Assembly (NCBI GenBank): GCA_031409655.1
Contig: JANNXQ010000023.1
Location: 1 to 11,967, forward strand
Direction of reading: 5' to 3'
Source of the DNA: Chthoniobacteraceae bacterium
GTDB taxonomy: Bacteria; Verrucomicrobiota; Verrucomicrobiia; Chthoniobacterales; Chthoniobacteraceae
DNA: 11,967 nt
Position numbers and translations under genes: made by a program. Positions 6,253 through 6,732 of this stretch are shown here, one piece after another; the stretch's first letter is position 1, and every line of letters begins with the position of its first letter. The notes beneath the pieces are model-generated. The model had not been told where the DNA came from. It searched no databases and saw only the letters and a list, made by a program, of their open reading frames with translations.

Positions 6253-6260
6253 GCAGAGAA

Positions 6261-6294
6261 TCGTCCTCGTCCTCGTCCTCGTCCTCGTCCTCGA
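6261..6294 (+). repeat. Tandem hexamer array (TCGTCC)5-TCGA, left arm of inverted pair
   Basis: Read directly from the sequence; ends 3 nt before ATG 6298. Confidence 0.97.
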
Positions 6295-6297
6295 CAT

Positions 6298-6732
6298 ATG
6301 GGCTCCGCGACGAAGTTCGATCACGAGAAACTGGACGTGTATCAGCTTCAGCTCCGTTTCATCGGATGGGTGTCCGACTTGTTCGAGGAACTGCATACCG
6401 CGAAGCCTCGCCGCGTCGCAGAAACCCTCGACCAACTCGACCGCGCCAGCCTTTCCGTGCTGCTGAATATCGCCGAGGGCAATGGCCGCCGTGGTTCCCA
6501 GCAGCGCGTGCGGTTCTTCGACGACGCGCGCGGGTCTGGAACAGAATGCGCCGCTTGTCTTGATGCGCTCATGGCCAAACGCGCCGCGACGGAGGCGCGC
6601 ATCGCAGAGGGGAAAGCGCTCCTCGTCAGAGTTGTGTCGATGCTGTCGAAACTCATGGAGCGCTTTGGCGGGGAGGACGCTGAAATTTCGAGGACGAGGA
6701 CGAGGACGATTACGAGGACGAGCGCGCCGTGA
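6298..6732 (+). CDS. Four helix bundle protein (23S rRNA intervening-sequence protein family, Avd-like fold)
   Basis: Family motifs FDHEKLDVYQ, DQLDRASLSVLLNIAEGNGR, RFFDDARGSGTECAACLD, and C-terminal helix LLVRVVSMLSKL. The tail SRTRTRTITRTS is encoded by the right repeat arm. Confidence 0.92.
   Translation: MGSATKFDHEKLDVYQLQLRFIGWVSDLFEELHTAKPRRVAETLDQLDRASLSVLLNIAEGNGRRGSQQRVRFFDDARGSGTECAACLDALMAKRAATEARIAEGKALLVRVVSMLSKLMERFGGEDAEISRTRTRTITRTSAP
6688..6721 (+). repeat. Tandem hexamer array TCGA-(GGACGA)3-TTACGA-GGACGA, right arm of inverted pair
   Basis: Its reverse complement matches 6261-6294 at 32 of 34 positions. Confidence 0.97.

Follow-up and report, generated by a model that had tools for sequence, protein, structure and literature searches.

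A four-helix-bundle gene between inverted tandem-repeat arms, and gene-less hairpins of related units, in a Chthoniobacteraceae genome

The junction between the moxR and DUF58 genes of a Chthoniobacteraceae bacterium (source genome G000) carries a discrete cassette, in which a single four-helix-bundle gene of the PF05635/TIGR02436 family lies between inverted arrays of a six-base unit. The arm unit is tied to the clade of the enclosed protein, which is under purifying selection, and gene-less hairpins in the genome share unit, polarity and local spelling with the resident cassette. The cassette itself has been gained, lost and exchanged at operon junctions. The layout and the gene-less hairpins suggest an undescribed protein-plus-hairpin system. 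Throughout, "the window" means the whole stretch of DNA that was analysed, 11,967 nucleotides in length.

The cassette and its protein

The two arms are complementary at 32 of 34 positions (Table 1). The moxR stop codon is located 8 nt upstream of the 5′ arm, and the four-helix ORF begins 3 nt past it. This ORF matches PF05635 at 59.8 bits (cut-off 33.8) and TIGR02436 at 54.6 bits (cut-off 24); 130 of its 144 codons fall within the loop, the remainder run through the whole 3′ arm, and its stop codon overlaps the DUF58 start (GTGA). The preliminary description of this DNA had placed two such arms 393 nt apart, looping out nearly the whole 144-aa ORF, and the letters bear this out at the same coordinates, with the refinement that the ORF crosses the 3′ arm. 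Its view of a discrete repeat-armed cassette of the protein family of intervening sequences (IVSs), without an internal transposase, recombinase or reverse transcriptase, likewise agrees with the profile matches, which are to PF05635/TIGR02436 only.

An inverted-repeat search returned the cassette arms as the top inverted repeat by length in the window (37 nt, 92%), and RNA folding paired them in both the MFE and the centroid structures (z = -4.0; 0 of 100 shuffles equally stable). In the relative G001, one unit of the 5′ arm reads TCGTAA, which renders the arm pair fully complementary. The GAGGA motif in the 3′ arm sits 10 nt upstream of the DUF58 start and, judging from its letters and position, is possibly a Shine-Dalgarno site that the arm stem would cover. 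The window has no Rfam match, the interval 5000-7000 contains no terminator-like site and one weak promoter-like match, and no phage record matches the cassette protein.

Table 1. Positions of the features discussed, in window coordinates unless a contig is named
Feature	Position	Strand	Basis
moxR AAA+ ATPase gene (upstream host gene)	5248..6252	+	PF07726 207.9 bits; AAA_3 domain; ORF
5′ arm, (TCGTCC)5 + TCGA, pyrimidine-rich	6261..6294	+	read from letters; inverted-repeat search
Loop between arms, 393 nt	6295..6687	+	letters; RNA fold
PF05635 / TIGR02436 four-helix-bundle gene, 144 aa	6298..6732	+	ORF; profile matches
3′ arm, TCGA-(GGACGA)3-TTACGA-GGACGA	6688..6721	+	letters; inverted-repeat search
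GAGGA in 3′ arm, candidate Shine-Dalgarno	6714..6718	+	read from letters
DUF58 / vWA gene (downstream host gene)	6729..7628	+	PF01882 157 bits
GxxExxY armed genes (L116, L115)	G000:C28:11520-12009 and G000:C84:19410-20129
135-nt gene-less unit	G000:C25 (two sites), C29, C66, C124, C258, C267

Upstream in the window are an rve/HTH_21 transposase gene (122-1003), which we take to be IS3-like, and an IS1634 transposase gene (2369-4204). Two minus-strand ORFs between and beside these transposases look interrupted, one encoding a dockerin domain (1531-2397) and the other a ThuA domain (4328-5083). A non-tandem 33-nt inverted repeat (1273-1305 and 1360-1392; 94% complementary, 54 nt apart) is probably a REP-like unit, as letters like its own adjoin other repeats of G000.

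The predicted structure of the cassette protein comprises four long helices and no strands (pLDDT 88). Its best fold matches in Foldseek are 2GSC and 2RLD, each with five chains, followed by Avd, to which it is 12-15% identical. A model of four copies scored 0.72 against 0.16 for the best control, thereby passing a mark that solved pairs attained in 20 of 30 cases and monomers in 1 of 23, a pass that possibly reflects memory of solved relatives; contacts agreed by at least 77% between runs, with pLDDT of at least 85. The dN/dS of the gene is 0.05-0.13. In Avd, as described in the accessible part of the report, a single RNA stem-loop is touched by all five protomers, and flipped bases lodge in the clefts where neighbouring subunits meet (10.1101/2023.10.23.563531). 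By analogy with its pentameric relatives, the cassette protein would form a ring, and arms of five to six units would match a ring of five subunits. The protein is probably not an enzyme.

Arm units and protein clades

When the genes of G000 were ranked by flanking inverted-repeat score, the cassette gene was second of 4672, in a gene set produced by crude in-house calling. A profile search identified 10 PF05635 matches in this genome, seven of which have arm scores of at least 20, one a score of 13 and two decayed arms, all under one scoring scheme; one of the two with decayed arms is also frameshifted. Among the control genes, 16 of 4657 reached a score of at least 15, in a set that still contained cassette genes. 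Thus, paralogue arms and the frequency of such arrays around unrelated genes, both of which the preliminary description had singled out for checking, came out as the cassette reading expects. The units of the paralogues differ (e.g., GTGATTG, AAGGATG, ATTTAGG and GAACATC), and most paralogues occupy tight operon junctions, including one in a second moxR-like junction, as identified by reading the translations of their neighbours.

In a tree of 59 of 63 proteins, from which those with profile scores below 85 were dropped, the window protein falls in a 15-row clade (support 100/100) with hexamer arms in 14 rows, and within it in a 6-row subclade (100/100) with TCGTCC-type arms in all six, one of which (in G025) is at an unrelated locus. 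Other clades use their own units of 6-9 bases. Hence, the TCGTCC and GGACGA arrays, whose enrichment the preliminary description had proposed to test, recur throughout the subclade of the window protein and are not the motif of the whole family, whereas its picture of a discrete, armed cassette stands.

Outside G000, paired arms were found at 65 of 80 subfamily loci, mostly from Verrucomicrobiota, to which the closest named homologues of the cassette protein also belong. The period is six in all 65, the median paired length is 34 nt, and the pyrimidine arm comes first in 57; in a minority of loci (L181, L184, L190, L199 and similar ones) the purine-rich arm comes first, and polarity can therefore flip within the hexamer subfamily. 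Arm pairs were compared at 59 of the 65 loci, after removal of whole-hairpin alignments longer than 50 nt and of duplicates. In the hexamer T-C-n-T-n-n, positions 1, 2 and 4 are nearly fixed while the others drift; 44 of the 59 arms are 5-6 units long, and 234 variant positions are matched in both arms versus 117 present in one. The arm of the same locus was the best partner in only 24 of 65 loci when partners were swapped, because kin share arms, and in all these subfamily and arm counts kin are not independent.

Armed genes also occur beyond this subfamily. Out of 35 matching records, six Nostocales plasmid PF05635 genes were examined, and five of these have arms of 7-8 bases. At one such locus, on plasmid alpha of Nostoc PCC 7120 (L254), the PF05635 gene has a downstream 7-base array and no matching upstream arm, and a transposase gene lies upstream. 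In G000, inverted tandem arms also flank both GxxExxY (PF13366) genes, with units of 8 bases at one and 9 at the other (Table 1), and a 190-nt gene-less unit, present in about 10 copies, has the 8-base arms of a GxxExxY cassette. This unit is found at G000:C300:50674-50868 and about nine other sites, its copies being mostly 84-91% identical.

Gene-less hairpins and turnover at operon junctions

G000 contains 232 gene-less hairpins of inverted tandem arms (median 97 nt), 221 of which lie outside called genes; most arms of this type thus have no gene between them. Several families have the units of resident cassettes (AACATCG 68, TCGTCC 21, AAGGATG 18 and GTGATTG 7), and for other large families, such as AACGCCA with 51, no cassette was found in the G000 assembly. 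Hairpin polarity equals cassette polarity in 21 of 21 TCGTCC, 18 of 18 AAGGATG and 7 of 7 GTGATTG hairpins. The local spelling is shared as well: a search pattern with the G000 spelling (TCGTAA) matched G000 38 times, counting overlaps, and three other genomes 7 times in all, with no match in the remaining 57, G012 among them, and a pattern permitting TCCTAC gave 10 matches in G012, whose own cassette spells TCCTAC. Hairpins fitting the strict pattern occur in three of six genomes with a gene of the TCGTCC clade and in four of 55 genomes without a found gene, those four assemblies being 72-87% complete.

The loops of these hairpins are mostly unique, with a median best loop match of 11 against 10 for shuffled loops and about six true pairs among 189. 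No target-site duplication was detected at the 232 hairpins for k = 4-8 (76, 24, 7 and 1, against 90, 25, 6 and 0.5 in swapped controls). A 135-nt gene-less unit is present at seven unrelated sites; its arms are TCGTCC/TCCTAC, and its copies have a loop in common and conserved inverted ends on the outside. At G000:C127:92680-92860 and 94040-94210, a hairpin unit with 9-base arms lies inside the loop of a hairpin with 7-base arms, twice and in inverted orientation; this arrangement is a nested insertion of one hairpin family into another.

Orthologous junctions of five G000 hairpins (11 comparisons) may carry a hairpin built of a different unit, a complete cassette or neither, and two sites retain a hairpin while the unit changes, in three genomes each. 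Hairpins occupy 10 of 491 convergent junctions (2.0%), 130 of 2503 co-oriented junctions (5.2%) and 45 of 477 divergent junctions (9.4%), counts that rest on the crude in-house gene calls. With gap length controlled, the odds ratio is 2.4 per adjacent gene start; the bias fades in gaps longer than 160 nt (3/95, 20/470 and 14/283).

Twelve orthologous moxR-DUF58 junctions were located through DUF58 genes of at least 70% identity. Four are occupied, one (L056:619-1500, in G003) is taken up by 880 nt of unrelated, armless DNA that includes an ORF of about 260 codons, and seven are empty, without a hairpin; relatives thus do have the empty sites that the preliminary description proposed to look for. 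A gene-first search added 14 occupied junctions, which cannot serve for frequency as they were found by the cassette gene itself. In a FastTree phylogeny of moxR plus DUF58 (28 rows; L130, with arms as in G014, and L190, from a paralogous operon, excluded), occupied and empty alleles are interleaved; a single gain, as read from a first tree of 14 rows, is not upheld by it. The proposed comparison of the cassette-gene tree with that of the flanking genes revealed a conflict, in which three cassette genes (L135, L140 and L142) group against their flanks with a support of 0.99, resting on FastTree supports only. In two comparisons the cassette gene has a dS of 1.8, where the flanks have 0.6-0.9; in a third, its dS is half as large as theirs.

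At a broader scale, 61 loci show 19 downstream-gene contexts, and the moxR-DUF58 junction accounts for 15 of the 80 subfamily loci. For 29 PF05635 loci in six relatives, the matching G000 junction lacks the gene in 12 cases, has it in eight and is not assignable in nine; by eye, the 12 gene-less junctions comprise seven plain ones, two with hairpins of other units, one with a remnant of the same unit and two with other DNA. On these observations, the cassette has persisted for long at some sites and moves on a longer timescale. Window positions 5179-8148 are 94% identical in DNA to G001:C314, against 77-88% for most of the other loci compared, suggesting that the operon was exchanged as a whole in the recent past; two other stretches likewise reach 90-93% identity. 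In addition, a read-set contig (run X3, record 19, depth 7) carries moxR 5754-6250 with one difference, and after it a junction that lacks the cassette and a DUF58 gene of 85% identity; this single contig, which could be chimeric, hints that recombination has replaced the allele.

Possible workings and relation to known systems

The likeliest model, with about an even chance of being right, is that the cassette is semi-mobile: its ring-shaped protein would bind the repeats that flank its gene, and the element would spread by homologous means, be placed in trans now and then and have the hairpins as derivatives. It draws on the link between unit and protein clade, the turnover at operon junctions, the hairpins of matching unit, polarity and spelling, and the resemblance of the protein to known pentamers. 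The layout of this widespread family consists of one four-helix-bundle gene between inverted arrays of 5-6 short degenerate units, together with many gene-less arm copies elsewhere in the genome. The ring would bind the repeats in its own arms and likewise those in the hairpins, approximately one unit per subunit, in single-stranded or extruded nucleic acid. Spread among orthologous junctions would proceed by homologous recombination through the flanking genes, new sites would arise now and then through an enzyme supplied in trans, and the hairpins would be deletion derivatives or non-autonomous partners. A stem that loops the insert out may let the host operon tolerate the cassette, and cutting of the transcript by RNase III, by analogy with rRNA inserts, is possible as a secondary process. 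Several findings count against the semi-mobile cassette. No catalytic partner was found: G000 gave no reverse transcriptase match (PF00078) in an assembly 94.9% complete, and no tandem arms of these units were seen by eye in the 200 nt upstream of its 13 Y1 transposase matches. Target-site duplications are likewise missing, the mostly unique loops are unlike elements that are copied as units, and gene and hairpins co-occur only partly. Long residence (15 of 80 loci) and the avoidance of convergent ends by hairpins would also fit a host function.

Such a function could be that of a domesticated regulator, an explanation that we regard as rather unlikely, in which a ring-shaped RNA- or DNA-binding factor targets cognate hairpins near gene starts and its own arms form an autoregulatory site. 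TRAP is a ring-shaped binding factor of this kind. Ribosomes passing along the 3′ arm would open the stem and expose the DUF58 start. The preference of hairpins for gene starts, the retention of a hairpin at two junctions despite a change of unit and the low dN/dS favour the regulator; in addition, 55 of 65 cassettes point the same way as both neighbouring genes, and in 51 of 65 the ORF stops within or past the 3′ arm. On the other hand, a regulator accords poorly with patchy presence, swaps and many unrelated host operons, with the decayed arms of two of the 10 paralogues (one frameshifted), with a start bias that fades in longer gaps and rests on crude gene calls, and with cassette arms that lack a G·U bias on the sense strand.

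An mRNA-embedded IVS as the main mechanism seems improbable. According to this explanation, RNase III cuts the 34-bp stem and releases the gene loop, and the moxR and DUF58 RNAs are held together by the outer half-stem as are fragments of 23S rRNA. The protein family is shared with the Coxiella burnetii 23S IVS, which is similar in size and stem length and has a 28-bp stem that, in the available text, RNase III cleaves in vitro (PMC4990558). G000 has a gene for RNase III, the arm stem is the dominant fold, and the arms co-vary as described above. However, three sets lack an excess of G·U on the sense strand: G·U and A·C mismatches number 25 versus 24 in the 59 hexamer arm pairs, 15 versus 32 in 32 other arm pairs (p = 0.019, in the opposite direction) and 123 versus 99 in 140 hairpins (p = 0.12). 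As this test is weak for a 34-bp stem, it withholds support from an RNA stem and does not refute one. Matched arm variants without a wobble bias fit copying of one arm onto the other at the DNA level; template switching at imperfect palindromes is a mechanism for such copying. An mRNA IVS also leaves the clade-specific unit unexplained, because RNase III needs a helix and not a particular unit. Furthermore, ribosomes on the ORF would cross the 3′ arm, and 45 hairpins lie between divergent genes. Arm-to-arm joints in read-derived contigs were considered as excision products and rejected, because they carry extra loop letters, several of which are identical to loops of G000 hairpins elsewhere.

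It is still less probable that the PF05635 gene is a mere passenger, with the arms being the ends of elements moved by a GxxExxY enzyme of the PD-(D/E)XK family or by an HUH enzyme, and with unit and protein associated through shared descent. The GxxExxY genes of G000 do have the same layout, with a multicopy gene-less unit to match, and Y1 transposase matches are present in this genome. Nevertheless, the protein is conserved, the units in the GxxExxY arms are different ones, and certain unit positions stay fixed across deep branches as the rest drift, as is expected for the binding site of the enclosed protein. Chance pairing of microsatellites can be set aside, for although TCGTCC/GGACGA is the commonest hexamer array class in G000 (28 perfect arrays), it is refuted by the recurrence at 65 of 80 loci, by the paralogue arms, by the single polarity in which arms pair (15 versus 1) and by reversed-pattern controls, which gave no match in 61 genomes.

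The semi-mobile cassette and its rivals are not fully exclusive. It is also tempting to speculate, tentatively and with the balance tilted against it, that PF05635 proteins in general are sequence-specific repeat-binding rings with clade-specific units of 6-9 bases, and that they form the core of a system which, with no transposase, places hairpins by the hundred in a genome and keeps them there. On this view, the IVSs of ribosomal genes are copies that landed in rRNA, the STRR hairpins of cyanobacteria are gene-less arms of the system, and the shared architecture carries GxxExxY genes as its second cargo. PF05635 is common and has solved structures, and the accessible parts of two reports describe it as lacking a characterised function and call the origin of the IVSs unclear (PMC4990558; 10.1101/2024.02.27.582315); the clade-specific unit provides a concrete candidate ligand. 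A link between protein and repeat would tie together ORF-bearing rRNA IVSs, STRR-type hairpins and repeat families without a dedicated transposase. Should each subunit read one unit, the family would constitute a natural set of repeat-binding rings with differing specificities. In a search of the openly accessible literature, no account came up in which PF05635 or GxxExxY genes outside rRNA are flanked by repeat arms. Within that literature, tandem repeats beside a PF05635 ORF are described only for the Coxiella 23S insert, where heptamers adjoin the ORF in the available text (PMC4990558), and the accessible portions of PMC7366714 and PMC5524665 contain nothing relevant.

Among known systems, diversity-generating retroelements offer the fold and the predicted homo-oligomer of Avd (10.1101/2023.10.23.563531, in its accessible part), whereas no reverse transcriptase was found in G000 and no template or variable repeat is apparent. 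Insertion sequences and MITEs share inverted ends, gene-bearing and gene-less forms, and a few gene-less units at many sites; unlike them, the cassette contains no transposase and its hairpins have no target-site duplication. STRRs of filamentous cyanobacteria are tandem 7-base units that form intergenic hairpins of unassigned function and, in the available text, are described without a cognate gene (PMC2670836). The arms of the Nostocales plasmid PF05635 genes resemble STRRs in unit length, whereas the present cassette has a 6-base unit and belongs to Verrucomicrobiota.

The closest parallels are with rRNA IVSs and with RAYT-REPIN systems. As in 23S rRNA IVSs, a PF05635/S23p gene lies within complementary ends that form a long stem, at a total of ~430-460 nt, with tandem short repeats by the start codon and a sporadic distribution, here evident in the empty junctions and the tree conflict (PMC4990558; 10.1101/2024.02.27.582315, both in their available text). 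Inserts in CPR rRNA, in the accessible part of that second report, have ORF-bearing and ORF-less forms at the same sites (10.1101/2024.02.27.582315). By contrast, the cassette is located between protein-coding genes, both of its arms are repeat arrays, unlike in the Coxiella IVS, and hundreds of gene-less arms are scattered in its genome. Purifying selection acts on its ORF, which continues across the 3′ arm, whereas the ORF of the Coxiella IVS is reported, in the available text, to be decaying (PMC4990558). With REPtrons and REPINs, as portrayed in the accessible parts of two reports (PMC3116915; PMC3733652), the cassette shares a low-copy gene within inverted repeats, many extragenic gene-less hairpins and one repeat family per gene clade. 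Unlike a RAYT, its gene encodes a four-helix bundle and not an HUH (Y1) tyrosine transposase, and its arms are tandem arrays of 6-9-base units, whereas those of REPINs are single palindromes. REPIN-like replication as units is at odds with the mostly unique loops, yet one unit occurs at seven sites; no excision intermediate was seen in the available contigs. In its workings the cassette would combine traits of ORF-bearing IVSs with those of RAYT-REPIN systems, yet it falls outside both classes, since it does not lie in rRNA, as IVSs do, and encodes no HUH transposase, as RAYT-REPIN systems do.
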